DNA of 64,000 nt, taken from the NCBI GenBank assembly GCA_934096295.1, contig CAKOLL010000001.1, positions 180,229 through 244,228 on the forward strand, written 5' to 3'. The translations under genes and the position numbers were made by a program. Positions 9,516 through 43,229 of this stretch are shown here, piece by piece. A model generated the notes under the pieces. The model searched no databases. It was not told the origin of the DNA and was given only the letters and a program-made list of their open reading frames with translations. This stretch comes from an uncultured Bacilli bacterium (GTDB taxonomy: Bacteria > Bacillota_I > Bacilli_A > RF39 > UBA660). Position 1 is the first letter of the stretch. Each line of letters begins with the position of its first letter.

Positions 9516-9998
9516 TTATTTTTCTCTTGCTAACTTTATATTAGTTGTTTTTCTAAAGTTTTCTGTTTCTCTTTCTAATAGACTTTCAGGTATAATAGAT
9601 AAACCTAATTCATTACTTATTTTTTCACAGAAATAAGAATTGATTATAATATCTTCAGAAAGTTCTTTATATTTCTTGCTTTTATCTTCATCTTCTAAAA
9701 CTGGTAAACCTTTTGAAAACACATTGTGATGTTCTATTAGACAGTTTTTATTTAAAGTAATTCCACTTGGAAGAAGCATAATACTATCTTCATGAATAAT
9801 AATTCTAAATATTCTACCCGTTATGACATCAATGCTATTTCCAGATGTATTTTGAGACTTTAATTTTTCAATATATAATTCTTCCGGAGATGTTATCTTG
9901 GTTTTAACAAATACTATTTGACCATATTCATCAATGACTTTTCTCCAACAAACAACTCCTTGTACATTTAATACATAACCTTGCCATTTATTTAACAT
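9516..9998 (-). CDS. Hypothetical protein
   Basis: 160 aa ORF with no recognisable motifs. Sits between the MBOAT/SGNH pair and ileS. Confidence 0.45.
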   Translation of the reverse strand: MLNKWQGYVLNVQGVVCWRKVIDEYGQIVFVKTKITSPEELYIEKLKSQNTSGNSIDVITGRIFRIIIHEDSIMLLPSGITLNKNCLIEHHNVFSKGLPVLEDEDKSKKYKELSEDIIINSYFCEKISNELGLSIIPESLLERETENFRKTTNIKLAREK

Positions 9999-10013: not shown

Positions 10014-10940
10014 TTATTTTGCAATTTCTTCTTCGTACCTTTCTAAAGCTCTATCCCAAAGTTTGTAATTTTTGTCTTTGCGATGATCCGTTAAAAGGTT
10101 TGTATCTCGCAGTATATTTCCTACAAATTCTGATGCTTTTAAAGCTCCGTAGTAATTTAAATGTCCCCCTTTATCTTTGGTATCAGTTACCCAATCAATA
10201 TTTAAATCATAATTATTCAAATTAATATAGGTAAAATTATATTCTTCACTTAATTTTTTTATTGCTTGATCTTTTTGATAATTCCATGTATCTTGAGATG
10301 GAAAACCAATTACAATTAATTTTGTATTATAGGAATTTGCTAAATCTACAAACATTTTTAAATATTCTTTATTTGCATCTATTAGTTTGTATTCTTTATT
10401 ATTTTTTTCCATGTATTTTTTTGGTTTACTTGGAATTTGTGTCTTATTTAATTTATATCCTTTTTGAATACTCATTATGCCATAATCTGAAAACAAAATA
10501 TTTTTCCAGTTATTGTGATAGTTTAAAAGTGGCATAATATTTTTAAGCATCCTTTCATATTTTATGTACCAACGTCTTTTTCTTGTATCACGGAAAAACA
10601 TGTTAGCACCCACTAAAACAACTTTAGGACGTTGACTTTCTAAAGCAACTTTATAATAATCATATGCATCTGGAAGAATAAAGGCTGCTTCAGCACAATC
10701 AAATACTGTGTAGCCAAATTTTTTATAAATTTCCATTGGTATTACTGATGAATATACTAAAGAGTCCCCTACTACGATGGCATCAATCGAATTCTTTTTT
10801 TCTCCTAAAATTTCATATTGTGCAGTTTTAATTAAACCGAAATCTTTAATATTTTCTTTGGGAAGCAAAGCGTATGAAAATCCGTAATAAAGAAAAATAA
10901 ATATCGCTATAAATAATATACTTTTTAATAAATTTTTCAT
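10014..10940 (-). CDS. SGNH/GDSL-like hydrolase or acyltransferase partner of MBOAT (DltD/PatB-like), membrane-anchored
   Basis: 308 aa with N-terminal TM. GDS motif AIVVGDSLVYSS near the N-terminus. Immediately downstream of the MBOAT gene. Confidence 0.6.
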   Translation of the reverse strand: MKNLLKSILFIAIFIFLYYGFSYALLPKENIKDFGLIKTAQYEILGEKKNSIDAIVVGDSLVYSSVIPMEIYKKFGYTVFDCAEAAFILPDAYDYYKVALESQRPKVVLVGANMFFRDTRKRRWYIKYERMLKNIMPLLNYHNNWKNILFSDYGIMSIQKGYKLNKTQIPSKPKKYMEKNNKEYKLIDANKEYLKMFVDLANSYNTKLIVIGFPSQDTWNYQKDQAIKKLSEEYNFTYINLNNYDLNIDWVTDTKDKGGHLNYYGALKASEFVGNILRDTNLLTDHRKDKNYKLWDRALERYEEEIAK

Positions 10941-12596: not shown

Positions 12597-12622
12597 AAAA
12601 GATAATGCCTTGGCATTATCCT
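12597..12622 (-). terminator. Terminator after the serpin gene
   Basis: GATAATGCC-AAG-GCATTATC hairpin followed by T6 on the minus strand. Confidence 0.55.
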
Positions 12623-12624
12623 CA

Positions 12625-14181
12625 TTAATTACTTTCTGTATATTCTGTAGGTTCGTATACAGTACCAGCAAACCAAACGTCTTTTGTGTTTTTATCACGA
12701 ATTAAGAACATAAATGGTTTATCAAATGTTATATCTATTTCTTTAACTGGTACTTTGTAAATATAGTCAAATCCACAAGATGTATCTCCGGCTCCTCCCC
12801 CTTCGGTAGCAGCAGCAGCTTTTATTCCTTCATTCGAAAATTCAATATTTGCTTTATGTTTTATTTCACTTATGTATGCGCTTTTGTCACTTGTTAAATT
12901 TAGTAAAGAGGCATGAGCTGGTTCAAAAACATTTTTTATACCTAAATCTTTTAAATTATTTTTTAAGTCTAGGGCATATTCAAACTTATAAAGAGGTATT
13001 AAACCACGAATACTTGTAATTACACCTTTTTCAAAATTATTTAGTTCAATAGCTTTTAATTTAGAGATATAATCATTTAATTTATCTTTATCTGTGTTTT
13101 TTATAAAACTATCTAAAGATTCAGTTCTAGGCATAAATGCTATATATTCTAATGATAGTTCATTATAATCTTTTAATTCTTTTTGAAAAACTTTAATATT
13201 ATCATCAATATAGAATGTGTAGTCTGTTGATGTTGCAACATCTTTATAGTTCTTATATATTTCTTTTATATAATTATCTAAGAATGTTTTAGTATCTTCA
13301 TACGTACTTTGGTCACAATAGTCATGACTAACCCATTCTTCATATTTTTCACCGACGAAATCTCTGATATTTTGTTCTCCGAGTTCACCAACAATATCAT
13401 AATTGTTAATTGCTGAACCTATTTCTACGGCATTTACTTCTTTATCATTAAATTTCAACTTACTGTAAACATCATCCATTATTGGCCCAATATACATAGC
13501 ATATTCTTCATGGGCATAACTTACTCCGAAATCCATTCCAGTATATGAGTGCTTTTCATCAAAGAATTCTTTGCCATTTATAGGTTGAATTGGATTTTTC
13601 CATTCCATATCAATAGCTAGAGCATTAATTAGTAAGAAATTTAGGTCTGAGACATCTTCGAGTAAATTTGGAATCAAACCAAAAGTCTTATTTTTAACCC
13701 ATTTATTAACGTTATCTGGAGTTTTAAAGGCATCATATATAATTTCGGCATTACAATTATCTTTTAATAATTTAATGTAGGAATCTTTAACACTCTTTTT
13801 ATATGAATCTTTAATAAACATGGAATTAGCAAGAGATGCATTCATAGTATTTGTATATTTTTTAGCTTGGAAATTACCTAAAACATTTTCTATTTCCGTG
13901 TGGGCATTATCTGTTGTGGCATCACTAAGCATACTTAAAGCATATTTTATGGAAAGCGGACTATAAACGATATTTTTATTTTTTCCACCAGTTTTCATAA
14001 AGTATAAATCAAATGCACTTAAAGCATTATCATTTATTTTATATGCTGAGTTATTATTAACAACTGATGTATCAAATTTATCATTTTTATTTTTAGTTAG
14101 TAATAAATATATAACTAAAGCAATTAATAAACTTAGCACAATACTTGATATAATTATTATTTTCTTTTTATTCTTTTTCAT
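12625..14181 (-). CDS. Serpin family serine protease inhibitor with N-terminal membrane anchor or signal
   Basis: 518 aa. N-terminal TM (IIIISSIVLSLLIALVIYLLL). Serpin N-terminal signature IVYSPLSIKYALSMLSDATTDN and breach region FLLINALAIDMEWKNP. Reactive-centre loop and hinge EGIKAAAATEGGGAG, then C-terminal FDKPFMFLIRDKNTKDVWFAGTVYEP. Confidence 0.8.
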   Translation of the reverse strand: MKKNKKKIIIISSIVLSLLIALVIYLLLTKNKNDKFDTSVVNNNSAYKINDNALSAFDLYFMKTGGKNKNIVYSPLSIKYALSMLSDATTDNAHTEIENVLGNFQAKKYTNTMNASLANSMFIKDSYKKSVKDSYIKLLKDNCNAEIIYDAFKTPDNVNKWVKNKTFGLIPNLLEDVSDLNFLLINALAIDMEWKNPIQPINGKEFFDEKHSYTGMDFGVSYAHEEYAMYIGPIMDDVYSKLKFNDKEVNAVEIGSAINNYDIVGELGEQNIRDFVGEKYEEWVSHDYCDQSTYEDTKTFLDNYIKEIYKNYKDVATSTDYTFYIDDNIKVFQKELKDYNELSLEYIAFMPRTESLDSFIKNTDKDKLNDYISKLKAIELNNFEKGVITSIRGLIPLYKFEYALDLKNNLKDLGIKNVFEPAHASLLNLTSDKSAYISEIKHKANIEFSNEGIKAAAATEGGGAGDTSCGFDYIYKVPVKEIDITFDKPFMFLIRDKNTKDVWFAGTVYEPTEYTESN

Positions 14182-14190
14182 TTATTCTCC

Positions 14191-15009
14191 TTATTTTTGG
14201 CATTTTGGACAGAAATATGTACTTCTTCCACCGATTTTTATATTTTCAATTAACGTATGACATTTTTTACAAGGCTCCCCTTCTTTTTTATGAACCATTA
14301 AGTGACTTTGAAATCTACCTGTTACCCCGAGGGATGATGTATAACTTTTAATAGTGGTTCCTCCATTTTTGATAGCTTCATTTATTATTTTTATGGATGA
14401 TGCTACAATATTTTTACATTCATCTAATGTGATATCGCAACCTAGTCTTGTAGGATTTATACCGGATGCAAATAATACTTCGTTTGCATAAATGTTACCT
14501 AAGCCACTTATGATGGTTTGGTCTAACAATAGTGTTTTTATAGGTATTTTTTTATTGTGAATATGTTCATATAAATAAAGTTCGTTTAGATCTTTGCTAT
14601 TAGCTTCGATACCTTGTTTTTTTATTGCTTCAACTTTATCAAGTTCACTTTTTTTAACAAGATTCATTCTTCCAAATTTTCTAGTATCATGGTATCTTAA
14701 ATCACTTGAATCTTCAAAAGTTATTATTATGTGTTCATGTTTTACGATTTTTTCACTACTTTTTTTAACAAAATACTTTCCTTCCATTCTTAGATGACTA
14801 AGTAAATAATAGTCACCAAGATCAAACATTAACCACTTACCTATTCTATCTATATCTATAAATTTTCTTCCAACAAGTATTTTTTTAAAATCATTTATAT
14901 CACTTTCAATTATCTTTGGATATATAATTTTTACATCCACAATTTTTTTATTTAAAATCATATGTTTTAATGTATTTCTTACTGTTTCTACTTCTGCTAT
15001 TTCTGGCAT
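14191..15009 (-). CDS. mutM: Formamidopyrimidine-DNA glycosylase
   Basis: MPEIAEVETVRNTL has the catalytic Pro2 and Glu3. C-terminal zinc finger CKKCHTLIENIKIGGRSTYFCPKCQK. Confidence 0.92.
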   Translation of the reverse strand: MPEIAEVETVRNTLKHMILNKKIVDVKIIYPKIIESDINDFKKILVGRKFIDIDRIGKWLMFDLGDYYLLSHLRMEGKYFVKKSSEKIVKHEHIIITFEDSSDLRYHDTRKFGRMNLVKKSELDKVEAIKKQGIEANSKDLNELYLYEHIHNKKIPIKTLLLDQTIISGLGNIYANEVLFASGINPTRLGCDITLDECKNIVASSIKIINEAIKNGGTTIKSYTSSLGVTGRFQSHLMVHKKEGEPCKKCHTLIENIKIGGRSTYFCPKCQK

Positions 15010-15019
15010 ACTTTTTACC

Positions 15020-15712
15020 TCACTTTACTAACCAAGAGAATAATTCGTTATCTTCAAGAATTTCCGGATGAAATTGAACTCCTAGAATAAAATCATCATA
15101 TTCAATTTCTTCGATAATCTCATTACATGCAGCATTTATTTTAATACTTTTTGAAGTTCTAGATACAATACTAGAATGAAGACTCACAACATCCAAAGTA
15201 TCACATTTATAAATTTTATATAACAAACTATCTTTTTTAATATTAATTTTATGTTTAGCATTATTAACTGTATTTATATCTTTAGTAACGTGCCTACGAT
15301 GAAAAGTATCATCATCTAGTCTTTTTAAATATGGATTACAAACTTTATAGTGTTCATATATTTTTGCATAATCTTGTTCATTTAGATTTTTACTATCTTC
15401 AAGAATGTTAAAATATGTATTAATTGATTGCATTCCTAGACATATGCCTAGAACTTTTTTATGATTCTTAATAGCATCATCTAATAAGTAATAAAATTCA
15501 TGACGGATTTTTGTTCCTCCGGGCCATAGATAAGCATCACAAATATCAGCATATTCTTTGATGTCTTTATCAAGCAAACCAATGGGTATTCCTCCACATG
15601 ACTTTATTTTATTAATATACATTGTAACAAAACTTGCTCTATCTTGATAAGGATCATTATCTATATCATGCAAATTAAATGTAGGAATAATTCCAATTAC
15701 TTTTTTCTTCAT
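15020..15712 (-). CDS. Class I glutamine amidotransferase-like / peptidase C26 (gamma-glutamyl hydrolase family)
   Basis: 230 aa with GICLGMQ nucleophile-elbow motif and C-terminal GVQFHPE. Confidence 0.75.
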   Translation of the reverse strand: MKKKVIGIIPTFNLHDIDNDPYQDRASFVTMYINKIKSCGGIPIGLLDKDIKEYADICDAYLWPGGTKIRHEFYYLLDDAIKNHKKVLGICLGMQSINTYFNILEDSKNLNEQDYAKIYEHYKVCNPYLKRLDDDTFHRRHVTKDINTVNNAKHKINIKKDSLLYKIYKCDTLDVVSLHSSIVSRTSKSIKINAACNEIIEEIEYDDFILGVQFHPEILEDNELFSWLVK

Positions 15713-18335: not shown

Positions 18336-19517
18336 TTATTTATTTTGGGGTATTCTTTTTAAAGTTATATCTTTTTCGCTACTTAATTGTTCTTCTATTT
18401 TCTCACTGTAAATTTTTAATATTTCAATTTCATCAGAGAAAAATAAATTTAGACCATGGATAATATTGATAAGATCTGTTGCATTCTTTTTTCCTAAACC
18501 AGTGATTAATGGTAGATCTTTTCTTTTAAATTTTATAATATCACCGATAGTTGTTAAATAGTGATGATTTTCACTTAAGGGGTTTACTAATCTTTTTTTA
18601 AATCCTAAACTGTATAGTTTTATAGTTAATAAAGCATCAAGTGGTAATTGTAATTCTAATAGTTTTTGAGTTTTGATATCAATTGAATCAAAATTTGCTA
18701 AGTATGTATCCACCTTTTTGTATAGTGGAACAAAAATCCCTAAGCTTTCTAAATCATACAATAACTCTTTAGAAATTGTTTCATTTGTTGATGTAATAAA
18801 TTTTAAAACATCTCCGGTTGTTTCCAATCTTGTATGGTATTTATATAAATTTCTATAAGGTTCTAACTCGTTATTATGAATTAAAAAACTTGCTCTTAAA
18901 TTTTGTTTATTTGGATATGAAATTGTTAATTTTAAACGTTCTTCTTCAGTTAAATCATCAATAAATTTTAAATTCATATCTGCAATAGGTTTTGAAACTT
19001 CTTTTATTAAAGTTTCAGAAATTTCTAAAGATAATAAATCACTTTTGGCATATGACAATAATTCACTTAAATAACCTATTCCAACCTTTGCAAAAGTCAT
19101 TAAAGTTCTATTGGTTAGTCCTAGCTCACCTAAAGGCATATTTTCTAGACTTTGTTGTTTTTCAGATAGTTCTATAGTACTTGGATTTTTATATTCGCTA
19201 ATACTCTTTGTTTTTATATACATTGAAATAGTTTCTTTTCCTCGAGTTATTATTTGTCTTACTCTTTCTGGAGTTTTAGATATTTTTCTGCTAATTGATC
19301 TTAATGACTCACAATTACCTGTAAGTATTCCAAAATGCAATCTTAAAACATAGGTACCGGTTTCATTTAAAGGTGCTACACAATTCATATTTAAATCAAA
19401 TAGTTTTGTTGTAATATCTTTAATTATTTCTGCTCTTCTTTGAAAGCTTGCTAAATATTCATAATCTTTACCAAAAGTATCTATGGCAATATATTCATAT
19501 AGTTCATTAAAATTCAT
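18336..19517 (-). CDS. Hypothetical protein carrying a sigma-70 region-4-like HTH module
   Basis: 393 aa. Residues around 55-100 (LRLHFGILTGNCESLRSISRKISKTPERVRQIITRG) resemble sigma-70 region 4.1/4.2. HhH-like segments follow (LGELGLTNRTLMTFAKVGIGYLSELL; ITGLGKKNATDLINIIHGL). Confidence 0.5.
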   Translation of the reverse strand: MNFNELYEYIAIDTFGKDYEYLASFQRRAEIIKDITTKLFDLNMNCVAPLNETGTYVLRLHFGILTGNCESLRSISRKISKTPERVRQIITRGKETISMYIKTKSISEYKNPSTIELSEKQQSLENMPLGELGLTNRTLMTFAKVGIGYLSELLSYAKSDLLSLEISETLIKEVSKPIADMNLKFIDDLTEEERLKLTISYPNKQNLRASFLIHNNELEPYRNLYKYHTRLETTGDVLKFITSTNETISKELLYDLESLGIFVPLYKKVDTYLANFDSIDIKTQKLLELQLPLDALLTIKLYSLGFKKRLVNPLSENHHYLTTIGDIIKFKRKDLPLITGLGKKNATDLINIIHGLNLFFSDEIEILKIYSEKIEEQLSSEKDITLKRIPQNK

Positions 19518-19583: not shown

Positions 19584-21989
19584 TTATTTAAGACGTTTAA
19601 GAATACTTTCATCTAAAATAATTGTTTTTCCGAATGTTGTTTGATATGTATCTAGGCATTTTTTTATAAAAGTTATACCTCTTTGGATACGTGTTGATGC
19701 AGCACTTAAATTTATATTCAAGCTTAATGCAATATCTTCGGTAGAATATTTTGTCCCATCAACCAGCCCAAAATATAACATGAATGGTTTGCGTATTTCA
19801 TCAGGCATAACATTAACCAAATCATAATAAACTTGGCTTACTTCTTCTTTTGTTTTAGTATTATTACTCTTAGTAATGTCTTTATTAATATCTTGCATCC
19901 TTTTTTCATCCAATCTTTTTTGCAAACCTTTTATTAATAACATTAAGTTCTTACTTTCATGTACATTTAATTGATTTAGATAAGGTTGATCTAAATTTTC
20001 TCCGAAAGCTTTTTTTAGCAATAAGTTTTCTTGTATCTCTGGGATTGATTCAATCTCACATTCTAAAATTTCATTTAATTTTTTTCGTAAGAACGGAGTC
20101 GGTTCATTAACTTTTCGACGAAGTGATGTGATATTATTATAAAAGTATGTTTTATCTTTTTCATCCATATTTGTTAAATCAGCATCTAAGTCAAAGTTTG
20201 AGCCATAATATTTAATAAGCATTTGATAAAATTTTGTATCCTTGTTTAAAGAATTTATAATAATACTTAATTCTTCGATAGTTACATTTAATAACTCCCA
20301 CAAGGCTTTTCTTTTACTTTTTTTCTTTGCCTCAGCTTTTTCAAGCGGAGTATTATTTTGACTTGGCCAAAAATTCACTCTTTTCATTCGATATTTCCAT
20401 CTAGTTAATTTATCATGAAATAATGTTTTTTCATATTTTGAAAGTAAATTATAGTTACATTTATCTGTTCCTTCTTTTCCAAAAGCTTTTACCATTATTT
20501 GATAAATTATAGTACTTTTATCTTGAGTTTCCCAGAGAAATTTAATTCTTTTACACATTTCTTCATATTCTAAAGTTTCTTTATTATAATCATTTAAAAA
20601 TTCTATTAGTGTTTTACAATATTTTTGGTCTTCTTGTTCTTTAATACACTTATAATATTTTGCTAACATCTTATCAATAACAAGTTTAATGTCTTTTTGA
20701 TTAAATTTACTTGGAACTACTTTCAAAGTCAAATTATTTCCAAAATTTTTGTATAGTATATTTTGAGCAGATGATTCTTGCTGTAAAACTAAGGCATATA
20801 TATCTTCTTCTTTTAAAGGTAAATACTCTAACAAAGATATTTTTATTACTTTTGAACAAGCACGCATTTTTTCCAAAGCTTTTTTCTCTTTTTGACGAAT
20901 TGTTTCTCTGGTTACATTATATATTTTGCTAACTTCTTCTAGAGTTTTATTTTCAATAAATCTTAATGTTATTATTTTTCTTTCTTCATCATTTAAACAT
21001 GATAGTAATTGATTTAATGTTAATATATTTATTGAGTCATCTTCAAATTCTCCGGATTTTAGAAATTGATACATACTAGAATTTTCATGTTCTTCGGGAT
21101 TTAAAGGAGCATCTAGAGATATATTTTCTGAAAAAGTCATTAACAACTTAGATAAGGCATCAGTTTCCATATGTAAAAAAGATGCAATTTCTTCTAGAGA
21201 TGGTTCTTTATCTAACTTATAAGATAAAATTTTTAATGCTTCAAGGTATTTATTATAAATTATATGTTGATTAATTGGGATTCTTATTGTTCTTCCTTTA
21301 TTTAAAATAGCTCTATTTATATATTGTCTTACCCAATATGTGGCATATGTACTAAATAAAAATCCTAAAGATGCGTTATATTTTTCCATTGCTTTAATCA
21401 TACCTATGGTTCCTTCATTTATTAAATCTAATTTTTCTAAGCCACAATTTAAATGTTTATTTGCAATAGATACAATTAATCTTAAATTCCCTTCGATAAC
21501 TTGATTTTGATAAAAAATATACTTTTTTTGATAATACTCTTTTTCTTCTTTTGAGATAGCTTTTTCATATAGTTCTTTATATTCTTGAAACTTAATTACA
21601 TATGCTATAGATGTTTCTCTTTTCATCGTGGGAATGTCACTTAGTTCTTTGAAAAACAAATTATCAGCACTTAAGTTTGCTGTTTCTTCAAATGTGTAAT
21701 TTAAATTGTCTTCTAAAAGTATATTTTTAATACTGGCATAAACATAGATGATTCCTCCGTTTATATCTCCGAATCTTTTATAGATTTCATCTTCCGTATA
21801 TTTATTTTTTCCTCGTAAGAGTTGGGCAAAATAGTTATCAATTATTGAACTTTTTTCTAACGCTTTAAGCATAAATGTAAAAATATCTTCAACCTTATTT
21901 TCAGTTAAGATGGAATTTATATAACTTAATTTTATATTACTTGTTTCTATTTTAGATTCAATATCTTTTATAATATTATCAAAATCCAT
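19584..21989 (-). CDS. Giant sigma-70 family protein: a sigma-A-like core with about 430 aa of C-terminal repeat modules and a second terminal HTH
   Basis: 801 aa. Region 1.2-like segment (DNLFFKELSDIPTMKRETSIAYVIKF). Region 2 (EGNLRLIVSIANKH...DLINEGTIGMIKAMEKY...FSTYATYWVRQYINRAI...RTIRIP). Region 3. Region 4 (ITLRFIENKTLEEVSKIYNVTRETIRQKEKKALEKMR). Then repeated KNFGNNL, KAFGKEG, KYYGSNFD, KAFGENLD modules. Terminal LYFGLVDGTKYSTEDIALSLNINLSAASTRIQRG is region-4-like. Confidence 0.75.
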   Translation of the reverse strand: MDFDNIIKDIESKIETSNIKLSYINSILTENKVEDIFTFMLKALEKSSIIDNYFAQLLRGKNKYTEDEIYKRFGDINGGIIYVYASIKNILLEDNLNYTFEETANLSADNLFFKELSDIPTMKRETSIAYVIKFQEYKELYEKAISKEEKEYYQKKYIFYQNQVIEGNLRLIVSIANKHLNCGLEKLDLINEGTIGMIKAMEKYNASLGFLFSTYATYWVRQYINRAILNKGRTIRIPINQHIIYNKYLEALKILSYKLDKEPSLEEIASFLHMETDALSKLLMTFSENISLDAPLNPEEHENSSMYQFLKSGEFEDDSINILTLNQLLSCLNDEERKIITLRFIENKTLEEVSKIYNVTRETIRQKEKKALEKMRACSKVIKISLLEYLPLKEEDIYALVLQQESSAQNILYKNFGNNLTLKVVPSKFNQKDIKLVIDKMLAKYYKCIKEQEDQKYCKTLIEFLNDYNKETLEYEEMCKRIKFLWETQDKSTIIYQIMVKAFGKEGTDKCNYNLLSKYEKTLFHDKLTRWKYRMKRVNFWPSQNNTPLEKAEAKKKSKRKALWELLNVTIEELSIIINSLNKDTKFYQMLIKYYGSNFDLDADLTNMDEKDKTYFYNNITSLRRKVNEPTPFLRKKLNEILECEIESIPEIQENLLLKKAFGENLDQPYLNQLNVHESKNLMLLIKGLQKRLDEKRMQDINKDITKSNNTKTKEEVSQVYYDLVNVMPDEIRKPFMLYFGLVDGTKYSTEDIALSLNINLSAASTRIQRGITFIKKCLDTYQTTFGKTIILDESILKRLK

Positions 21990-29477: not shown

Positions 29478-29942
29478 TTAATTTTCATAATCAATTTTTG
29501 TCTTAAAGAATAATCTCATACTTTCTTTGGAAATAATATTATTGCATGGTTCTCCGTCTTTATGATTACCTCTGGCATCTATCCACGGTTTTTCCATATG
29601 CGTCAAATATTCTAAATATTTTCCGTCATAAATGCCATATGTATTCCAAACGTCATACAAAAAATTGACTAGTTTTTTATCTAAAACTGGTACTTTTCCT
29701 TTAGGCCTATCTATTGCTTGAAAGCCATATTCCTTATATTCAAAATAAATACCTACGTTTGCTGGTCCATGTGCCCATGCTTCAAAATCTTCACTAAAAA
29801 GTTCTTTATCATACATCGCTAAATGATACCCTTGTGCATAATATAATATCTTTTGCAATTTTAATGGTGTAATTGTACTTCCTGCATCTCTATCTACAAT
29901 TTGCAAGAAAAAGTTTGCTATGTCAAATATAGTTAACTTCAT
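29478..29942 (-). CDS. Panacea domain (DUF4065) antitoxin-like, SocA-like phage-associated protein
   Basis: 154 aa. MKLTIFDIANFFL...ITPLKLQKILYYAQGYHLAMYDKELFSEDFEAWAHGP matches the Panacea/DUF4065 signature. Confidence 0.75.
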   Translation of the reverse strand: MKLTIFDIANFFLQIVDRDAGSTITPLKLQKILYYAQGYHLAMYDKELFSEDFEAWAHGPANVGIYFEYKEYGFQAIDRPKGKVPVLDKKLVNFLYDVWNTYGIYDGKYLEYLTHMEKPWIDARGNHKDGEPCNNIISKESMRLFFKTKIDYEN

Positions 29943-30102: not shown

Positions 30103-30881
30103 TTATTTGTATTAATATTTATGCTTCCTACGCCACCGTCTATATCAATTATATTTTGTCCTTCCCCTAATTCGATGTCATTTTTGTAGCTAATACCATT
30201 AATGGAGATACTGCCTAGACCTTTGGATGCTTCAAATTTATAATCATCATTTTGCAAATCTAATGTTACCTCTCCGACCCCTTGATCTATTTTATTTTTA
30301 CCTAAAAGCATTCCATTAAAATAGAATTTACCAGTTCCTAAATCTAGAGATAAATCTTGTAATTTGGAATTTGTAATATTTAGTTCTCCGGCTCCTCCAT
30401 TAACTTTTGTTTTATTGGATAGCAAATTTGTAATATCAACTTTACCAGCACCTTGATCTAAAGAAAATTTATCAGTTGTTATATCAGAAATTTCAAGTTT
30501 GCCAGCACCAATATTAATATTTAAATCATCTAATGTATCTGGTATAGTAATTATGGTATGAGAACTTTTTTTATTTCCGAATATTGTTATCTTTTTTTCT
30601 TTTATTAATAAAGTATTTCCATCTTCTTTTATTTTAAATTCTTTACTAACATTATCAGCATTAATACTTAATATATCTCCTTTTTTAATTATCATATTAG
30701 TTGAACCAACATCTATATTTATATTTTTTATATTACTTGAGTAGGTTTTGCTAACATTAACATCATTATTAAAATTAATTGTTGATGTCGCTAAAAATAC
30801 GATTCCATTAATAATACTTAGTATTATTAAAACTGCAAGACAGATAGCAAATCCTTTTATTACTTTTTGCGTGGTATTCAT
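30099..30881 (-). CDS. DUF4097 'toastrack' beta-repeat protein (YvlB-like putative adhesin / stress-response partner)
   Basis: 260 aa with N-terminal TM. Repeated G-A-G-K/E-[LV]-[DN]-I beta-strand units (GAGKLEISD, GAGKVDITN, GAGELNITN, GVGEVTLD, GVGSININ). Confidence 0.6.
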   Translation of the reverse strand: MNTTQKVIKGFAICLAVLIILSIINGIVFLATSTINFNNDVNVSKTYSSNIKNINIDVGSTNMIIKKGDILSINADNVSKEFKIKEDGNTLLIKEKKITIFGNKKSSHTIITIPDTLDDLNINIGAGKLEISDITTDKFSLDQGAGKVDITNLLSNKTKVNGGAGELNITNSKLQDLSLDLGTGKFYFNGMLLGKNKIDQGVGEVTLDLQNDDYKFEASKGLGSISINGISYKNDIELGEGQNIIDIDGGVGSININTNK

Positions 30882-31555
30882 TTAATTTCAATTCCTCCGA
30901 ATACGGCATATCCTTCGATATAAATTGTCTTTTTAGCATCTTCATTATTTTTTCTTTCGTTAGAAATTCCACCGAATATTGGAGTACCTTTTACTTTAAC
31001 TATGCAATCTTTTGGAACTAATATTTCTATACCACCAAATATCGCCCATGCTCCGATGACTGTTTCTTTTTCTAATTTTGCTTCTCTTAAGTCTAGTTTT
31101 ACAGCCCCAAAAATAGCATTTAAATTTGCTTTTTCAAATTTTTCTCCAGATTTAGTTACATTTTGTTCTCCGAATGCTGCAAAAATATTTTCAGTGTCTT
31201 CACTATCTAAACATTTTGTTTTTTCTTTAACATTAAAATCTACCTTATTACCAAATATTAAAGATAACCCAATTAATACGACGATTGCTGGTAATAAAAT
31301 TTCCCAAAGAATTTCAAATTCAAATAACCCTTGAGCTGCTAAAAGGAGTAAAACCCCAATAATTAAAAATATTAAAGAAGATACTTTATTGCTACCTTTT
31401 TCAAAAAATGATATAGCACTTGGCACAATAATAAATAGTGTCCACCATCCATCAAAAAAAATATTTATGTCTGCTACTCCAGTTCTATTAAGTCCCCAGA
31501 TAACACCAACAAATATTAATACTATGCCCCATAATACTCTGCTTAAATTTTTCAT
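30878..31555 (-). CDS. LiaF-like membrane protein (DUF2154, cell-wall-stress toastrack domain)
   Basis: 225 aa. Multi-TM N-terminus plus C-terminal repeated FGG/FGA strands (AAFGEQN, AIFGAVKLD, AIFGGIEILV, TPIFGGIS, AVFGGIEIK). Overlaps the DUF4097 gene by 4 nt. Confidence 0.6.
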   Translation of the reverse strand: MKNLSRVLWGIVLIFVGVIWGLNRTGVADINIFFDGWWTLFIIVPSAISFFEKGSNKVSSLIFLIIGVLLLLAAQGLFEFEILWEILLPAIVVLIGLSLIFGNKVDFNVKEKTKCLDSEDTENIFAAFGEQNVTKSGEKFEKANLNAIFGAVKLDLREAKLEKETVIGAWAIFGGIEILVPKDCIVKVKGTPIFGGISNERKNNEDAKKTIYIEGYAVFGGIEIK

Positions 31556-34486: not shown

Positions 34487-35312
34487 GGCACTCCTTTATA
34501 AATCTAGTATAATTAATATACCTTGAAGGAAGAATTATTCCTTTAGACATTGCTTCGATTACTTTGCAACCTCTTTCTTTTATGTGCATGCAATCTTTAA
34601 AATCACACTCATATTTTTGAAATTCTAAAAACGTTTCTTTTAACTTATCTTTATCAATATTATTTAAGTCTAGCGCTGAAAATCCTGGAGTGTCCACAAA
34701 AAATATTTTACCTATTTTGTATATTTCTGTATGTCTTGTTGTATGAACTCCACGATTTAAAGCCTCACTAATTGGCTTTGTTTCAAGATTTAATCTTTTA
34801 TCTAATTTATTTAATAAACTTGATTTACCTGCCCCAGTTTGACCTGTTAAAACTACAAGTTTATTTTTTAAGATACTTTTTATTTTTCCTAAATGTTTAT
34901 TATCCACAACTTTAATTCCTATACTTTTATAATATTTTATTAGTGGTTTTAAGTTTTTAAACTCATCTTTTGATAACAGATCTAGTTTTGTTAAACAAAT
35001 AACGGGTTCAATGTTATTAGCAAGAATTACACTTAGTTCTTTATCAAGTAGGCTTAATGATAAATCTGGCTTTTTAACACTTGTTACAATTAAAGCCATA
35101 TCAACATTAGCTACAACTGGTCTTTCAAGTTCATTTACTCTAGGTAATATTTCTTCGATTGTTAAAGTAGATTCATCAATTCTTACTATATCACCCACCA
35201 AAGGGGAAAGTCCTAAATTTCTAAACTTTCCCCTAGCACTACAAATATAATCAACCCCATTTACTGTAACTTTATATTGATTACTTATTTGTTTTGTGAT
35301 TCTACCTTCCAT
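34458..35312 (-). CDS. rsgA: Ribosome small-subunit-dependent GTPase A (circularly permuted GTPase, YloQ/CpgA)
   Basis: 284 aa. G4-G1 order (TKLD...GQTGAGKSSLLNKL). C-terminal Zn cluster CDFKDCMHIKERGC. Confidence 0.85.
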   Translation of the reverse strand: MEGRITKQISNQYKVTVNGVDYICSARGKFRNLGLSPLVGDIVRIDESTLTIEEILPRVNELERPVVANVDMALIVTSVKKPDLSLSLLDKELSVILANNIEPVICLTKLDLLSKDEFKNLKPLIKYYKSIGIKVVDNKHLGKIKSILKNKLVVLTGQTGAGKSSLLNKLDKRLNLETKPISEALNRGVHTTRHTEIYKIGKIFFVDTPGFSALDLNNIDKDKLKETFLEFQKYECDFKDCMHIKERGCKVIEAMSKGIILPSRYINYTRFIKECHENNRKLYK

Positions 35313-37057
35313 TAGTTTAATTCTCCATTATCATCTGGTTCTTCTTCAGTTGGAGCCACAGCTATATTAATTGTTAATTTTGCTCCGCTTACCACTGTTG
35401 TTCCTGCTGCTCTACTTTGATAAAATATTGATCCAGCTGGATGTTCTGTAGTTGCTACTTCTTTCTTAGTTAAAATTACACCATATTCACTACAGAAATT
35501 TTCTACTTCTTCAACACTGTAATTTTCATTTACAAAATCTGGATATTTATTGTCTAGTTTGGGAACATAAAGTGTAATTGAATCTCCTTCACTTATTTTT
35601 GTTCCAGCTTCAATAGATTGATCTATTATAATATTTTCTTTATAAGTTTCTCCATCTGTTAAATCTACTTCTTTTTTATCAATTATTACTTGAACTTTTA
35701 ACGCTTCAAGTTTTCCCTTTATTTCTGATGCATTTTTACCTTTATAATCTTCGATAGTTATTTTTACATCTCCGAGTGAACGATAAATTATTACCTCAGT
35801 TCCAGCTTTTCTAATACTTCCAATTGCTGGTGATGTTCTAGAAACTTTTCCTTCATCTATAAGTTCATTGGCTTCTTCTCTTTGTTCATCGGATACTATA
35901 AACCCAGCATCTTGTAGTGCTTTTATGGCATCAGTTATTGAATAACCTGATACATCTGGAATAGCGGTTTGTTTTGATGATGTAATTTTAGGAATTAAAA
36001 CAAATATAGTTGTAATTATTACTACAAGTCCAACAAAAACGCTTGCTAAGGTTATTAGTAACTTATTATCTGATGTTGTTTCAGTATTTTTTGTTTTCTT
36101 TGCCACTTCTTTATCACCACTCTTTTCATTTTTATTTACTTTTGTCTTTTGTTCTTTAACTGTTTTTATTAGTTTTGTATCATCATAATCATTTTCAGGA
36201 TACTTAAATGTAATCTTTAATTCATTTGCTCTGGATTCATCAAGACATGTTTTTAAATCTTCATGCATTTCTCTGGCATCACTATATCTATTTTTAGGAT
36301 TTTTTGCTGTAGCCCTTAGTATTATGTTTTCAACACTTTGGGGAATATCTGGTAGCTCATCTCTAATACTTGGCATTGGTTCTTTTAAATGTTTTAAAGC
36401 TATTTCTACGGCATTGTCTCCGCGGAATGGGAGTTTACCTGTTAGAAGCTCATACATTAAAATACCAATTGAATATATATCACTTTGAAGAGTTGCACCT
36501 TTGCCACTAGCTTGTTCTGGTGGTAAATAATGAACACTTCCCATGACGGAATTTGTTTGAGTAAGCTGAGTTGCATTCATAGCAACAGCTATACCAAAGT
36601 CTGTAATTTTTATAAGTCCATTTTCTAAAATTAGAATATTTTGAGGCTTGATATCACGGTGGATTATATAAGAATCGTGGGCAACACTTAAACCGTTTGT
36701 TATTTGAAGAGCTATATCAATTACCTCTGGTACAGTTAATTTACCACGTTTTTTAAGTAAAGCCTTTAAATGTTTGCCTTCAACATATTCCATCACTATA
36801 TAATATTCACCATTATCTTCACCAACATCATAAACCTCAACAATATTGGGATTGGAGAGACTACTGGCAGATAAGGCTTCTCTTTGGAAACGACGGACAA
36901 ATTTTTCATCATTTGCTAGGTCGCCACGCAAAACTTTTACTGCAACATTTCTATCTAAAATGGTATCATATGCTAAATAAACATTAGCCATACCACCTTC
37001 ACCAATAGATTTTATTATTTGGTATCTATCACTAATTTTTTGCCCCTTCATTATCAT
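35312..37057 (-). CDS. prkC: Ser/Thr protein kinase with extracellular PASTA-type repeats
   Basis: 581 aa. Hanks kinase motifs (IGEGGMANVY, VAVK, HRDIKPQNIL, DFG, PE), TM segment, C-terminal repeated sensor domains. Confidence 0.85.
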   Translation of the reverse strand: MIMKGQKISDRYQIIKSIGEGGMANVYLAYDTILDRNVAVKVLRGDLANDEKFVRRFQREALSASSLSNPNIVEVYDVGEDNGEYYIVMEYVEGKHLKALLKKRGKLTVPEVIDIALQITNGLSVAHDSYIIHRDIKPQNILILENGLIKITDFGIAVAMNATQLTQTNSVMGSVHYLPPEQASGKGATLQSDIYSIGILMYELLTGKLPFRGDNAVEIALKHLKEPMPSIRDELPDIPQSVENIILRATAKNPKNRYSDAREMHEDLKTCLDESRANELKITFKYPENDYDDTKLIKTVKEQKTKVNKNEKSGDKEVAKKTKNTETTSDNKLLITLASVFVGLVVIITTIFVLIPKITSSKQTAIPDVSGYSITDAIKALQDAGFIVSDEQREEANELIDEGKVSRTSPAIGSIRKAGTEVIIYRSLGDVKITIEDYKGKNASEIKGKLEALKVQVIIDKKEVDLTDGETYKENIIIDQSIEAGTKISEGDSITLYVPKLDNKYPDFVNENYSVEEVENFCSEYGVILTKKEVATTEHPAGSIFYQSRAAGTTVVSGAKLTINIAVAPTEEEPDDNGELN

Positions 37058-41174: not shown

Positions 41175-43229
41175 TTACTTATCTTCTTCGCAATTTACAC
41201 AAATGTTTTCTCCATTTTTATCAACGATTAATTCTCCACATTTCGGGCAAATTTCACCAGTTGGTTTGTACCATAACGCATATTTACATTTCGGATAATT
41301 ATTACATCCATAGAAAATTTTACCCTTTTTTGTTTTTCTTTCTACAATCATGCCTTTGTCGCATTTAGGACATTTACAAACTTCTACGACCTCTTTTTTC
41401 TCTTTTTTAATATACTTACAAGTTGGATAATTGCTGCATGCAACGAATTCACCAAATTTACCCTTGCGGATTACTAATGGGCTTCCACATTCAGGACAAT
41501 TTTCGCCAGTTTCTTCAGGGCCTTTCTTTTCCATTTCATGAAAAGCTTTTTCCACTAATGGTTCAAATTCATCATAAAATTCATGTAACACTTTTTTATA
41601 ATCCATTTTATCTTCCGCAATTTCATCTAAATCATGTTCCATGTTAGCAGTATATTCAACATTTACTATACCACTAAAGAACTCTTGTAATTTATCAGTT
41701 GTTTCAATACCAATTTCTGTTGGCTCAAACTTTTTATCTTTTAATACTACATATCCACGCTCTTTAATCGTTCCAACGATGGTTGCATAAGTTGATGGAC
41801 GACCTATTCCTAGACTTTCCATTTCTTTAATTAAACTACTTTCCGTATATCTTGGAGCTGGCTTAGTAAAATGTTGAGTTTTTGTAATATCATCTGCTGT
41901 TATACAACCTGATTTATAATTTTTTAAATCGGGAAGTATTACATCTTCACTATCTTCATATTCACTATAGACTTTTAAATAACCATCAAATGTTAAAACA
42001 CTACCTGTTGCTTTAAATGTATAGCCATTGTTTTCTAAAATAACTGTTGTTGCAAGTGTTTTAGCATCCGCCATTAAAGATGCAAGAGCTCTAGCATATA
42101 TTAATTTATATAATTTATATTCATCATTTGATAAATATGGTTTTACACTTTCTGGTGTTCTATTAATACTTGTTGGTCTAATACCTTCATGAGCATCTTG
42201 AATATTTTCGTTTTTCTTTCCTTTTTTTACATATCCAATATAATTTTCTCCGAACTTTCCTTTGATGTATCCAAAAGTTTCTTTAACAAATGAATCACTT
42301 ACTCGGATACTATCAGTACGCATGTAAGTAATTAACCCAACTGTTTCATTACTTAAGGTTTTACCTTCATATAAGTCTTGAGCTAATTTCATGGTTTTTG
42401 ATGGAGCAAAGCCTAATTTATTTGATGCTGCTTGTTGCAAAGTACTTGTTTTAAATACTTCACGTGCACTCTTGTTTTTTTCTTTTTCTGTGACACTTTC
42501 AATTTTAAATGATTTAGAAAGCTTAGATAATATTCCATCTGCTTCAACTTCATTTGGTATTTCTACTTCTTTACCGTGGTACTTATCCAAGGTTGCTTTA
42601 AATTCTTTAAAGTCTGCTTCGATTGTCCAATACTCACGAGGCACAAAGGCTTGAATTTCTCTTTCACGATCTACGATTAGTTTTAAGGCAACACTTTGAA
42701 CACGTCCCGCTGACTTGCCTCCGGTTTTTCTTTGCATTAATTTACTTAGTCTAAAACCTATAATTCTATCTAAGAATCTTCTTGTTTCTCCAGATCTAAC
42801 CAAATTCATATCTATTTTACCTGGATTATTAATAGCATTTATAACTACATCTTTTGTTATTTCATTAAATACTACCCTTTTATATTTTTCATCAGGTATT
42901 TTTATTTCATCATAAATATGCCAAGAAATTGTTTCCCCTTCACGGTCTGGGTCGGTTGCAAGATAAATTGTATTTGCATCCTTTACATCTTTTTTTAAGG
43001 CCGTGACCTCTTTATTTTTTCCTTTAATTATTTGGTAATTGGGCTCGAAATCATGTTCAACATCTATTCCTAAACCAAATTTACCTGTTGTAGCTAAATC
43101 TCTGATATGTCCTTTACTAGAAACTACTTTATAGTCGCTACCTAGATATTTTTCAATGGTTTTACATTTTGCTGGAGATTCCACTATAACTAAATTTTTC
43201 ATCCTATTCCTCCTTTTGCTCATTTGCAT
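41175..43229 (-). CDS. topA: DNA topoisomerase I
   Basis: 684 aa. TOPRIM (LVIVESPAKCKTIEKYLG), active-site region, three C-terminal Zn ribbons (CPECGSPLV...CSNYPTCKY etc.). Confidence 0.9.
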   Translation of the reverse strand: MQMSKRRNRMKNLVIVESPAKCKTIEKYLGSDYKVVSSKGHIRDLATTGKFGLGIDVEHDFEPNYQIIKGKNKEVTALKKDVKDANTIYLATDPDREGETISWHIYDEIKIPDEKYKRVVFNEITKDVVINAINNPGKIDMNLVRSGETRRFLDRIIGFRLSKLMQRKTGGKSAGRVQSVALKLIVDREREIQAFVPREYWTIEADFKEFKATLDKYHGKEVEIPNEVEADGILSKLSKSFKIESVTEKEKNKSAREVFKTSTLQQAASNKLGFAPSKTMKLAQDLYEGKTLSNETVGLITYMRTDSIRVSDSFVKETFGYIKGKFGENYIGYVKKGKKNENIQDAHEGIRPTSINRTPESVKPYLSNDEYKLYKLIYARALASLMADAKTLATTVILENNGYTFKATGSVLTFDGYLKVYSEYEDSEDVILPDLKNYKSGCITADDITKTQHFTKPAPRYTESSLIKEMESLGIGRPSTYATIVGTIKERGYVVLKDKKFEPTEIGIETTDKLQEFFSGIVNVEYTANMEHDLDEIAEDKMDYKKVLHEFYDEFEPLVEKAFHEMEKKGPEETGENCPECGSPLVIRKGKFGEFVACSNYPTCKYIKKEKKEVVEVCKCPKCDKGMIVERKTKKGKIFYGCNNYPKCKYALWYKPTGEICPKCGELIVDKNGENICVNCEEDK

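Follow-up and report, generated by a model that had tools for sequence, protein, structure and literature searches.

Surface-anchored bacterial serpins are already known, miropin of Tannerella forsythia (PDB 5NCS) being the example, and membrane-anchored prokaryotic serpins form a category in Spence et al. 2021 (PMC8233489). Miropin is inhibitory, offers several usable reactive-site bonds in its loop (register flexibility), carries a stabilising disulfide and has been proposed to shield surface proteins against host and bacterial proteases. The protein analysed here is likewise a serpin of a host-associated anaerobe with a cell-surface tether, but miropin is an outer-membrane lipoprotein of a diderm, whereas our protein has a putative uncleaved TM helix and belongs to a monoderm-type Bacilli lineage. 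Also, miropin (~374-400 aa) has neither the gate expansion nor the extended P′ motif described below, and the two proteins share 23% identity over the aligned core. Tengpin (Thermoanaerobacter tengcongensis; PDB 2PEE/2PEF/2VH4) keeps its metastable native state stable with the help of an accessory element that lies outside the core (PMC8233489). That stabiliser is an N-terminal extension packed on the body, whereas the candidate in our protein is an internal gate hairpin with a P′ clamp; tengpin has no gate expansion. The siropins of Eubacterium siraeum and the Bifidobacterium longum serpin come from human gut commensals, the same ecological setting as we infer for the present serpin, and also have small-residue hinges; experimentally, they inhibit host neutrophil elastase, proteinase 3 and faecal proteases. 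They are of canonical length and from other lineages, and are set apart by their descriptions, in which no gate expansion or extended P′ motif is given. In the literature searched there was no characterised member of the long-form clade to which our protein belongs and no description of a long-form serpin, or of serpins in RF39/'Tenericutes'; the long-form sub-family is uncharacterised. The initial annotation of this locus had proposed a membrane-anchored, probably inhibitory bacterial serpin in a housekeeping block, and on every point that could be tested our results agree with it.

Gene layout and serpin fold

The serpin gene lies on the minus strand of a 64-kb window, by which we mean the whole stretch of DNA analysed, and its parts are as follows.

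12625..14181, minus strand: complete serpin CDS of 518 aa plus stop, an uninterrupted ORF with an ATG start
14187..14192, minus strand: RBS AAGGAG, 5 nt upstream of the serpin ATG and overlapping the mutM stop codon (14191-14193), read directly
14161..14181, minus strand: predicted cytoplasmic tail MKKNKKK (aa 1-7), a positive-inside cluster, from K/R counts in homologues
14095..14160, minus strand: putative transmembrane signal-anchor helix, aa 8-29 (IIIISSIVLSLLIALVIYLLLT), from hydropathy, the AF2 helix and homologues
14029..14094, minus strand: predicted extracellular linker, low-complexity and K/N/D-rich, aa 30-51, from pLDDT and entropy
13564..14028, minus strand: N-terminal part of the serpin core, hA to s3A plus breach, aa 52-206, the first Pfam/PDB stretch, containing shutter S74/S77 as well as N186 and W194
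13222..13563, minus strand: clade-specific gate-region expansion, aa ~207-320, the gap between the two Pfam stretches
13228..13410, minus strand: predicted helical hairpin between s3C and s1B, aa 258-318, from DSSP of the model, alignment with short forms and covariation
13315-13317, minus strand: Cys289, within the hairpin, from the sequence
12835..13221, minus strand: C-terminal part of the serpin core, s1B to s5A, aa 321-449, with shutter His442 (second Pfam stretch, aa 338-511)
12805..12834, minus strand: hinge N450-E-G452(P15)-I(P14)-K-A-A-A-A-T459(P8), from alignment to the conserpin hinge
12778..12804, minus strand: exposed variable part of the reactive-centre loop (RCL), aa 460-468 (E-G-G-G-A-G-D-T-S), from pLDDT, composition and entropy
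12727..12777, minus strand: conserved P′ motif C469-G-F-D-Y-I-Y-K-V-P-V-K-E-I-D-I-T, aa 469-485, running into s1C, from conservation
12775-12777, minus strand: Cys469, from the sequence
12649..12726, minus strand: C-terminal strands (end of s1C, s4B, s5B), FDKPFMFLIRD...VWFAGTVYEP, aa 486-511, from alignment and model
12598..12623, minus strand: intrinsic terminator-like hairpin GAGGATAATGCC-AAGG-CATTATCTTT with a T-run, directly after the serpin stop, from the sequence

No second serpin copy was found within the 64-kb window. A code in which TGA is read as Trp, as Mycoplasmatales have it, is not indicated: the table 11 ORFs are intact and one ORF stops with TGA.

Sequence and predicted fold together confirm that the protein is a serpin. 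The alignment to Pfam PF00079 suggested in the initial annotation gives 158.7 bits (E 3.2e-46; gathering threshold 27), the match being interrupted by the expansion and so divided into two stretches, and all four of the motifs quoted there were located: SPLSIKYALSML at aa 74-85, NALAIDMEWK at 186-195, EGIKAAAATEGGGAG at 451-465 and FDKPFMFLIRD...VWFAGTVYEP at 486-511. Among PDB sequences 175 serpins are matched at E<=1e-3 (phmmer best E 3.6e-25), and a Foldseek search with the predicted model returns serpins at E ~1e-22, with Hsp47 among the top ones. The model (AF2 mean pLDDT 86.5, low confidence being confined to the linker, <50 at 31-39, and to aa 455-468, <50) represents the native, loop-exposed state and has the three beta-sheets, 8-9 helices and exposed RCL between s5A and s1C that define the serpin fold. 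In an alignment of 81 sequences S74, S77, N186, W194 and H442 are invariant, as in the shutter and breach of inhibitory serpins. From motif alignment and the alpha1-antitrypsin sequence, we take these to be its S53, S56, N186, W194 and H334. The protein was earlier said to be about 100 aa longer than typical serpins, which is correct as to the excess, except that the extra length is not at the N-terminus only: the anchor and linker contribute ~50 aa and most of the rest is an internal expansion of ~85-90 aa and an RCL 13 residues longer than that of conserpin.

Putative membrane anchor and gene neighbourhood

The N-terminal hydrophobic segment noted earlier is real, spanning aa 8-29 with a Kyte-Doolittle value of 3.0, and AF2 gives one continuous helix across residues 5-30. 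This layout is kept in 119/120 homologues, many with cytoplasmic extensions of 20-60 aa, and among 121 homologues the eight residues preceding the hydrophobic run have a median of 4 K/R. It may be noted that Gram-positive signal peptides likewise begin with a Lys-rich n-region and continue into a hydrophobic core; by this reading a cleavable Sec signal would release the serpin in soluble form, without membrane anchor, as with the siropins and the serpin of B. longum. Yet the run is 22 residues long, both here and as the median of the homologues, is at least 18 residues in 108/121 and begins beyond residue 30 in 36/121, while only 13/121 have an AXA-like site and 5/121 a lipobox-like motif. The present protein has no cleavage motif or lipobox, the residues after the run being K/N-rich without a small-x-small motif. 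Taken with the continuous helix, these observations make the secreted form highly improbable and support an uncleaved type II (N-in, C-out) signal anchor, a heuristic assignment. By the same heuristics the protein has the N-terminal retention signal and the serpin domain outside the cytoplasm that characterise membrane-anchored prokaryotic serpins; it lacks the lipobox Cys of a miropin-like lipoprotein, and anchoring would instead be by the putative TM helix. The linker (aa 30-51, entropy 2.39 bits) is flexible and provides ~20 residues between membrane and serpin core. A peptidoglycan wall is probable for this organism, given the PASTA kinase, LiaF and LtaS-like genes in the window; in RF39, the GTDB order of the lineage, a wall is predicted for most members (PMC10868615). 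Given so short a linker and a probable wall, the access of large external proteases to the membrane-proximal serpin is therefore uncertain.

Only 9 nt separate the serpin from mutM, which implies co-transcription, and from the gene order the serpin closes, as last cistron, a polA-mutM unit that is conserved in 'CAG:460'-like uncultured gut Bacilli. Co-transcription with the housekeeping genes polA and mutM suggests that the serpin is expressed constitutively. Of the flanking genes named in the initial annotation, MBOAT (PF03062) and MutM hold, but the SGNH label of the 308-aa neighbour (10014-10940) is unproven: it has no Pfam or NCBIfam match at E<0.01, and its Lipase_GDSL_2 match is sub-threshold (16 bits, E 0.017; cutoff 32.9). 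A functional coupling of the serpin to this MBOAT/'SGNH' pair is not supported, as the terminator lies between the serpin and the MBOAT gene and a related locus (L025) has polA-mutM-serpin-ileS without an MBOAT gene. Recent horizontal acquisition, or an island, was also rejected: the GC and GC3 of the serpin equal those of neighbouring genes, no mobile-element genes are adjacent, and the order polA-mutM-serpin-MBOAT-...-ileS is retained down to 47-50% serpin identity. Truncation in close relatives, named beforehand as an observation that would speak against the serpin reading, was not seen; the gene is full length in L001 ('Firmicutes bacterium CAG:460', 520 aa), L002 and L003, and an identical protein is present on 19 metagenomic contigs.

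This vertical inheritance with synteny over a family-level clade, together with the co-transcription with polA and mutM, would also suit an inhibitor whose target is the bacterium's own membrane-associated or secreted serine protease, e.g. in envelope quality control, sporulation signalling or autolysis, and the membrane position with a short linker, probably beneath the wall, favours membrane-acting targets. But a dedicated partner protease was sought and set aside, there being no linked protease gene in the window and no recurrent neighbour in 24 related loci. Also, the serpin has diverged far more rapidly than the genes beside it (74% vs 85-96%, and 49% vs 76-82%), and its bait positions are hypervariable between species, the pattern expected of an interface with external, changing targets. 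The characterised commensal serpins act on host proteases. On these grounds together we consider a target within the bacterium itself to be improbable.

Hinge, bait loop and gate expansion

The initial annotation had stated that a hinge without the small-residue pattern would count against it. We found the pattern to be present, with P15 Gly, P12-P9 A-A-A-A and P8 Thr. The run G452-I-K-A-A-A-A, then T459, corresponds to the small, uncharged P15-P9 of inhibitory serpins, and P7 is polar and P6 hydrophobic, as expected of an inserting strand. P15-P8 is the most conserved stretch of the whole protein (mean entropy 0.42 bits; G452, I453, K454, A455 and A457 near-invariant), and across 199 sequences we find G at P15 in 199/199, I at P14 in 197/199, A at P12 in 198/199, A at P10 in 187/199 and T at P8 in 172/199. 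Relative to the inhibitory consensus ExGTEAAAA for P17-P9 (PMC8233489), the hinge deviates in having an invariant Asn at P17 in place of the usual Glu and Ile at P14 in place of Thr/Ser. Beyond the hinge, variability is focused at aa 460-461, 464 and 466-468 (entropy of the exposed RCL part 1.84 bits), in a bait that is unusually Gly-rich, with G462, G463 and G465 invariant.

The P17 and P14 deviations can be taken to mean that the protein is a non-inhibitory serpin, serving at the membrane as a binding, chaperone or sensor module, and so can the invariance of three glycines and the high conservation of the P′ side, both unusual in a bait loop. The clamped, Gly-rich loop would then bind a ligand or act as a conformational switch. 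Hsp47, maspin and PEDF are non-inhibitory eukaryotic serpins, and the position of Hsp47 in the Foldseek results is in line with such a reading. Also, in one homologue (P0191) a long-form serpin is the ectodomain of a transmembrane Ser/Thr kinase, the usual place of a sensor domain; but this fusion was seen once, on 1 contig, and the kinases of its family exchange their ectodomains freely; no further PF00069+PF00079 protein was found among the best 120 matches, and as a singleton we set it aside as evidence of a sensor role. Non-inhibitory serpins typically lose the inhibitory hinge pattern, whereas here the hinge is the most conserved segment and fits it, the shutter and breach residues are invariant and the variability sits exactly at the positions of the specificity residues. 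On these grounds a non-inhibitory role seems unlikely to us.

The initial annotation further expected the target class to follow from P1-P1′, which did not work out, as the loop is atypical and P1 cannot simply be read from it. Across the family the spacing between P15 and G465 is constant and only the part beyond G465 differs in length, which indicates a P side of canonical length. By canonical count P1 would be D466 (family composition A83 G37 S34 D32), although Asp would be odd for digestive or neutrophil serine protease targets, and among the hypervariable residues 464 (A/L/K/G/M/R/Y/F), which precedes it by two positions and lies between invariant Gly, is the most P1-like; P1 is thus ambiguous between D466 and A464. 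The small candidate residues (A/S/D/G at P1 and A/G/T at P1′) weakly suggest elastase-like or subtilisin-like targets.

The gate expansion consists of s4C/s3C with ~20 extra residues between the strands, followed by the helical hairpin (helices 263-267, 269-286 and 297-311 by DSSP of the predicted model). It is missing from the aligned short-form relatives L028-L030, L032 and L033. A search with the expansion only gave 142 matches among 1.84 billion protein representatives; 9 of the 10 checked were serpins and the tenth was spurious. No structural match of the expansion was found outside serpins, and by these searches it is confined to the long-form serpin clade. Three TM-anchored short forms from gut Clostridia MAGs (L028, L029 and L030, 433-437 aa), the closest expansion-free relatives, share with our protein the signal-anchor layout, SPLSIKYAL, NALAIDMEWKN, the G-[VI]-K-A-A-A hinge and the C-terminal FxxLIRDKxTxExWFxGTVYEP. 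None of them has the ~85-90-aa expansion, the Cys pair, the GG-x-G bait or the F-D-Y-x-Y-x-V-P motif; the loop in these short forms is ~6 residues shorter and their P17 is Glu instead of Asn.

The offset from P15 to FDKPF is 34 in 150/199 sequences as against 21 in conserpin, so the RCL is about 12-13 residues longer, all of the extra being on the P′ side, where the motif C-G-F-D-Y-x-Y-x-V-P-V is conserved (pLDDT 92 for aa 471-480). Expansion and P′ motif co-occur, short-form relatives being without both, and they co-vary: by MI-APC the pair C289-C469 ranks 4 of ~108,000 pairs, K279-F471 40, Y304-Y473 125 and F275-Y475 248. Both cysteines are present in 110, neither in 8 and one in 3 homologues, and the counts are 26 both, 55 neither and 14 one in the diverse set (Fisher p 5e-11), where the pair is carried by only about a third of the long-form clusters. 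This strong covariation points to a putative disulfide between Cys289 (hairpin loop) and Cys469 (P3′) in the sub-clade that includes our protein, the basis for the hairpin-P′ contact and the disulfide being covariation and pLDDT. In an obligate anaerobe extracytoplasmic disulfide formation may be inefficient. Overall, the extra helices appear to act as a clamp on the far side of this unusually long loop. Tentatively, and with considerable doubt, we propose a latch undescribed in serpins, in which the gate hairpin would grip the aromatic P′ motif, pinned by Cys289-Cys469 in the sub-clade, block the latency transition and present the Gly-flanked bait.

Proposed function and its significance

From the sequence evidence we think it likely that the protein is an inhibitory-type serpin on the outer face of the cytoplasmic membrane of low-GC gut Bacilli ('CAG:460'-like), with the gate hairpin holding the P′ side of the RCL, and its function would most likely be surface-displayed suicide inhibition of extracellular serine proteases. 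A target protease would attack the exposed Gly-rich bait around A464-T467 and form an acyl-enzyme, after which the P15-P1 segment would insert into sheet A and trap the protease covalently at the cell surface, and envelope proteins would thereby be shielded in the gut from proteases of the host or of competitors. The hairpin at the gate, with a disulfide in the Cys-pair sub-clade, would hold the P′ side, a clamp that probably guards the metastable native state against the transition to latency and places the bait in position beforehand. In another member of the long-form clade (P0209) the serpin module is joined to BspA-LRR and dockerin, a surface/cellulosome-type targeting in place of the TM anchor; it has dockerin-cohesin attachment, a cleavable-looking signal peptide and a bait that is not Gly-rich (VTVIEIVPTAPALPDF). 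This architecture supports a cell-surface role for the long-form module.

The metastable native state is stabilised by an N-terminal extension in tengpin, by a C-terminal tail in thermopin and by disulfides in aeropin and miropin. A gate hairpin with a clamped, elongated P′ loop would add a new natural solution to these, and the long-form clade is a useful comparison for studies of latency and polymerisation. If the latch is true, a disulfide on the surface of an anaerobe might tie inhibition to local redox, e.g. in the lumen as against the oxygenated or inflamed mucosa. The reduced-genome, uncultured 'Tenericutes-like' Bacilli are common in human and animal guts and their interaction with the host is almost uncharted. 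A conserved, constitutively placed and surface-anchored serpin is a concrete candidate for their survival in a protease-rich lumen. As with the siropins and the serpin of Bifidobacterium, it is also a candidate for modulating host proteases of the elastase type that have a bearing on gut inflammation.

Serpin identity and the N-terminal anchor

The GC content of the window is uniformly low (22-32%), with coding nearly all on the minus strand, and the ORF at 12625-14181 (-) is intact, with an ATG start and a product of 518 aa. Each of the serpin motifs quoted by the initial annotation, which was made from the sequence without database searches, is present in this ORF, and its assignment as a serpin is borne out by PF00079 (158.7 bits, E 3.2e-46, cutoff 27). 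A phmmer search against the PDB returned 175 distinct serpin sequences, the best being conserpin (E 3.6e-25), with tengpin as the best characterised bacterial serpin (7e-19). The AlphaFold2 model (81 homologues, mean pLDDT 86.5, pTM 0.82) falls below a pLDDT of 50 only at the post-anchor linker (31-39) and at residues 455-468, and Foldseek matched it to native serpins at E ~1e-22. The product is a serpin beyond reasonable doubt.

Residues 1-7 read MKKNKKK and are followed by an unbroken hydrophobic run at residues 8-29 (Kyte-Doolittle 3.0 over 19 residues), a single helix spanning residues 5-30 in the model. A comparable run was found in 119 of 120 homologues. With the query included, its median length is 22 residues (at least 18 in 108 of 121), a median of four Lys/Arg lie within the eight residues ahead of it, and its median start is residue 20. 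As the start lies past residue 30 in 36 of the 121, many relatives have cytoplasmic extensions of 20-60 residues. By a heuristic call, these features mark a type II signal anchor and neither a cleaved signal peptide nor a lipoprotein: an AXA-like motif follows the run in only 13 of the 121, and a lipobox-like motif occurs in 5. Secretion following signal-peptide cleavage is very improbable.

The linker from the anchor to helix A is about 20 residues in this serpin (family median 30, measured from the run end to the FDLxF motif). This linker is short and probably lies beneath a cell wall, a caveat to inhibition at the surface. Three genes or gene groups of the window touch on the envelope:
30878-31555, minus strand: LiaF-like protein
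35312-37057, minus strand: PASTA-domain Ser/Thr kinase, with a PP2C phosphatase upstream
43204-45240, minus strand: LtaS-like protein of the sulfatase family
These genes suggest an envelope that still contains peptidoglycan and lipoteichoic acid, which bears on the accessibility of a membrane-proximal serpin.

Hinge and bait of the reactive-centre loop

The hinge can be aligned without gaps to that of conserpin: N450 (P17), E451, G452 (P15), I453 (P14), K454, A455-A458 (P12-P9) and T459 (P8). No other segment of the protein is as conserved (mean entropy 0.42 bits vs 1.2-1.3 for the core), and among 199 family members we found Gly at P15 in 199, Ile at P14 in 197, Ala at P12 in 198, Ala at P10 in 187 and Thr at P8 in 172. 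P7 is polar and P6 hydrophobic (V/L/M/I), which fits the alternating outward and inward positions of an inserting strand. The shutter and breach residues S74, S77, N186, W194 and H442 are invariant. By these features the loop has what the initial annotation had required for insertion, the small-residue pattern of the hinge included. There are two departures from the inhibitory hinge consensus ExGTEAAAA (PMC8233489), an invariant Asn at P17 and Ile at P14.

After T459 the loop continues as x-x-G462-G463-x464-G465-x466-x467-x468, with the three glycines nearly invariant and the x positions the most variable of the C-terminal half (1.9-3.1 bits). The canonical count (P15 plus 14) puts P1 at residue 466, which is Asp in this serpin and its closest relatives and mostly Ala, Gly, Ser or Asp (83, 37, 34 and 32) across the 199 members; P1' is then 467, a Thr in this serpin and A/G/T/D/I among the family members. 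Position 464, P3 by the same count and occupied by Ala in this serpin, has the repertoire that most resembles a P1 (A, L, K, G, M, R, Y, F). Family members differ in loop length only past G465, which fits a scissile bond within 464-467, with 466 or 464 as candidate P1 residues. Both candidates are small residues, a weak pointer to elastase- or subtilisin-like target enzymes. The bait is atypical in having Asp at the canonical P1, a caveat to the inhibitory reading. A non-inhibitory role, in favour of which the two hinge departures may be cited, appears unlikely to us given the conserved hinge.

Gate expansion and P' motif

The PF00079 and PDB matches are split in two (about aa 52-206 and 338-511), and between them lie ~130 residues vs about 20 profile positions in canonical serpins. 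Alignment to the nearest relatives without the expansion (loci L028, L029 and L030, of 433-437 aa, and also L032 and L033) resolved it into two pieces, about 20 additional residues in the s4C-s3C interval and about 60 in the s3C-s1B interval, the latter modelled as a helical hairpin (helices 263-267, 269-286, 297-311). The distance from the P15 glycine to F-D-K-P-F of s1C/s4B is 34 residues in 150 of the 199 family members vs 21 in conserpin. This excess lies wholly beyond the canonical P1 and forms a conserved P' motif, C469-G-F-[DE]-Y-x-[YF]-[DEK]-V-P-[VI]-x-x-I-D-L-T, which is modelled confidently (pLDDT 92 for 471-480). Over a ~380-aa serpin, the extra length thus comes to about 50 aa of anchor and linker, about 85-90 at the gate and 12-13 in the loop.

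All members of the clade, here called the long form, have the expansion together with the P' motif, and its short-form relatives have neither. When the expansion alone (aa 205-340) was searched against 1.84 billion representatives, only 142 proteins matched at E<=1e-3, with the matches at the expected position in proteins mostly of 500-800 aa. Of ten inspected, nine were serpins and one was a spurious ankyrin match; the module is thus exclusive to long-form serpins.

Cys289 lies in the loop of the hairpin and Cys469 at P3'. In the set formed by the query and its 120 closest homologues, both are present in 110 sequences, neither in 8 and one alone in 3, and exactly two Cys occur past residue 60 in 95 of the 121. 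The association holds in a diverse set of 95 usable sequences (50%-identity representatives and the query), where 26 have both, 55 neither and 14 one (Fisher p 5e-11, odds ratio 30). An MI-APC scan (221 sequences, Neff 186, about 108,000 pairs) placed C289-C469 at rank 4, and the hairpin-motif pairs K279-F471, Y304-Y473 and F275-Y475 at 40, 125 and 248. From covariation and model confidence only, we infer that the P' motif may be packed on the hairpin and that a Cys289-Cys469 disulfide would pin it in the sub-clade that includes this serpin. The s3C/s4C gate is the region that the loop must pass in the latency transition (e.g. PAI-1), so that the simplest reading of a clamp there, acting on the P' side, is a lock on the native state; it could equally well serve as an exosite. 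Such a lock would have a purpose like that of the accessory elements in tengpin and thermopin or of the disulfides in aeropin and miropin (PMC8233489).

Genomic context, distribution and proposed role

The serpin ATG is preceded by AAGGAG at a distance of 5 nt and lies 9 nt past the stop codon of mutM. A hairpin and T-run directly follow the serpin stop, and the MBOAT gene, 97 nt downstream, has its own RBS. The serpin is therefore the final gene of the unit polA-(GATase/C26)-mutM-serpin, whose transcript does not extend to the MBOAT pair. As to the MBOAT/SGNH pair proposed beside it, the MBOAT half stands (DltB-like, under the equivalog cutoff at 151 vs 375 bits), and the SGNH half is unproven: the 308-aa gene has no Pfam or NCBIfam match at E<0.01 and no PDB relative, the best being Lipase_GDSL_2 at E 0.017. 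The rest of the window is of housekeeping character (mutL, ileS, clpB-like, priA, rsgA, the PASTA kinase with PP2C, rlmN, fmt, topA, LtaS-like, rnhB and others). Other genes observed in the window are:
9516-9998, minus strand: 160-aa protein after the 308-aa gene, with no match at all
10014-10940, minus strand: 308-aa membrane protein with a GDS motif, downstream of the MBOAT gene
15020-15712, minus strand: 230-aa class-I glutamine amidotransferase / Peptidase_C26, between polA and mutM
18336-19517, minus strand: 393-aa protein with only weak RNA-polymerase alpha-CTD and sigma region-4-like matches
19584-21989 and 49847-52906, minus strand: two sigma-70-family proteins of great length (801 and 1019 aa), regions 2-4 only in the first ~380 residues, then 400-640 residues without Pfam match
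29478-29942, 46774-47817 and 49057-49545, minus strand: SocA/Panacea antitoxin-domain, RhuM-family 'virulence' and DUF5680 proteins, scattered in the block
The long sigma proteins and their 393-aa neighbour are unusual sigma architectures, and the last three genes may be small accessory or defence-related insertions.

The order polA-mutM-serpin-MBOAT-308aa-(160aa)-ileS is kept in four loci, L002 ('uncultured Tenericutes bacterium UMGS686') and L003, L005 and L006 (Hadza gut Bacilli MAGs); the 308-aa and 160-aa genes are both syntenic in L002 and L003, and the former also in L005 and L006. L001 ('Firmicutes bacterium CAG:460') keeps polA-mutM-serpin as far as the contig end, and L025 keeps polA-mutM-serpin-ileS without the MBOAT gene. 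In L002, L003, L005 and L006 polA and mutM are adjacent; the amidotransferase gene, found also on contigs with the identical serpin, is a lineage-specific insertion in the operon. The serpin diverges faster than its neighbours: at 74% serpin identity PolA is at 85% and IleRS at 96-97%, and at 48-49% they are at 76% and up to 82%. Its GC and GC3 are those of the neighbours, the identical protein occurs on 19 contigs from several samples, and across 24 loci long-form serpins have no recurrent neighbour family beyond this synteny. The gene is thus native, vertically inherited, fast-evolving and stand-alone. Neither a serine protease nor a second serpin was found in the remainder of the window. 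An endogenous target would change only the enzyme inhibited, all else in the preferred reading being kept, and we hold it to be improbable.

The family comprises at least 120 90%-identity clusters (470-576 aa), all with the full architecture. Most genome matches are MAGs from gut or rumen with the label Bacilli, Tenericutes or Mollicutes, and some bear the label Clostridia, Lachnospiraceae, Ruminococcaceae or Saccharibacteria (binning as given). Two Saccharibacteria-binned contigs, L021 (polA- and mutM-like genes nearby, in opposite orientation) and L032, carry long-form or related TM-anchored serpins (42% and 35% identity), which could be mis-binning or a true spread of the family beyond Bacillota. 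The long-form module is also joined to other devices, so that its cell-surface targeting device is interchangeable: BspA-type LRR repeats and a dockerin (P0209, 1001 aa), a ~230-aa C-terminal extension (P0195, 787 aa), a ~340-aa N-terminal extra region (P0217, 807 aa), and, in the L019 ORF (773 aa), a lipoprotein-like signal together with a long region at the N-terminus. P0191 (L039:1589-4261, 890 aa), one uninterrupted ORF on a 4.4-kb contig, has an N-terminal kinase of the Hanks Ser/Thr type (aa 57-292) and, after a TM helix (~362-384), an ectodomain that is a long-form serpin. It resembles a receptor kinase in which a serpin takes the position of the usual sensor domain; it was seen on one contig, with no further such fusion among the top 120 matches.

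Bacterial serpins are sparsely distributed, most have N-terminal transport signals, and 'membrane anchored' is a recognised category (PMC8233489). Miropin, a lipoprotein serpin on the surface of T. forsythia, protects this organism and has multiple reactive sites, a precedent for the use of several bonds of one loop. Among gut commensals, siropins and the B. longum serpin inhibit neutrophil elastase and proteinase 3. Tethering of a commensal serpin to the surface is thus not new in kind. Our literature search found no description of the long form (gate hairpin, extended clamped P' loop, Cys pair, P17 Asn) or of serpins in RF39/'Tenericutes-like' gut Bacilli, and no experimental study of a TM-helix-anchored serpin.

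The membrane-anchored serpin first proposed is upheld by these results. We consider it probable, on sequence and model, that the protein acts from its anchor at the cell surface as a suicide inhibitor of extracellular serine proteases and that its loop has a clade-specific latch, in which the hairpin would clamp the P' motif. This is no surprise in principle; the serpin offers a tidy, testable entry point to the host interaction of an uncultured gut lineage and to serpin metastability.
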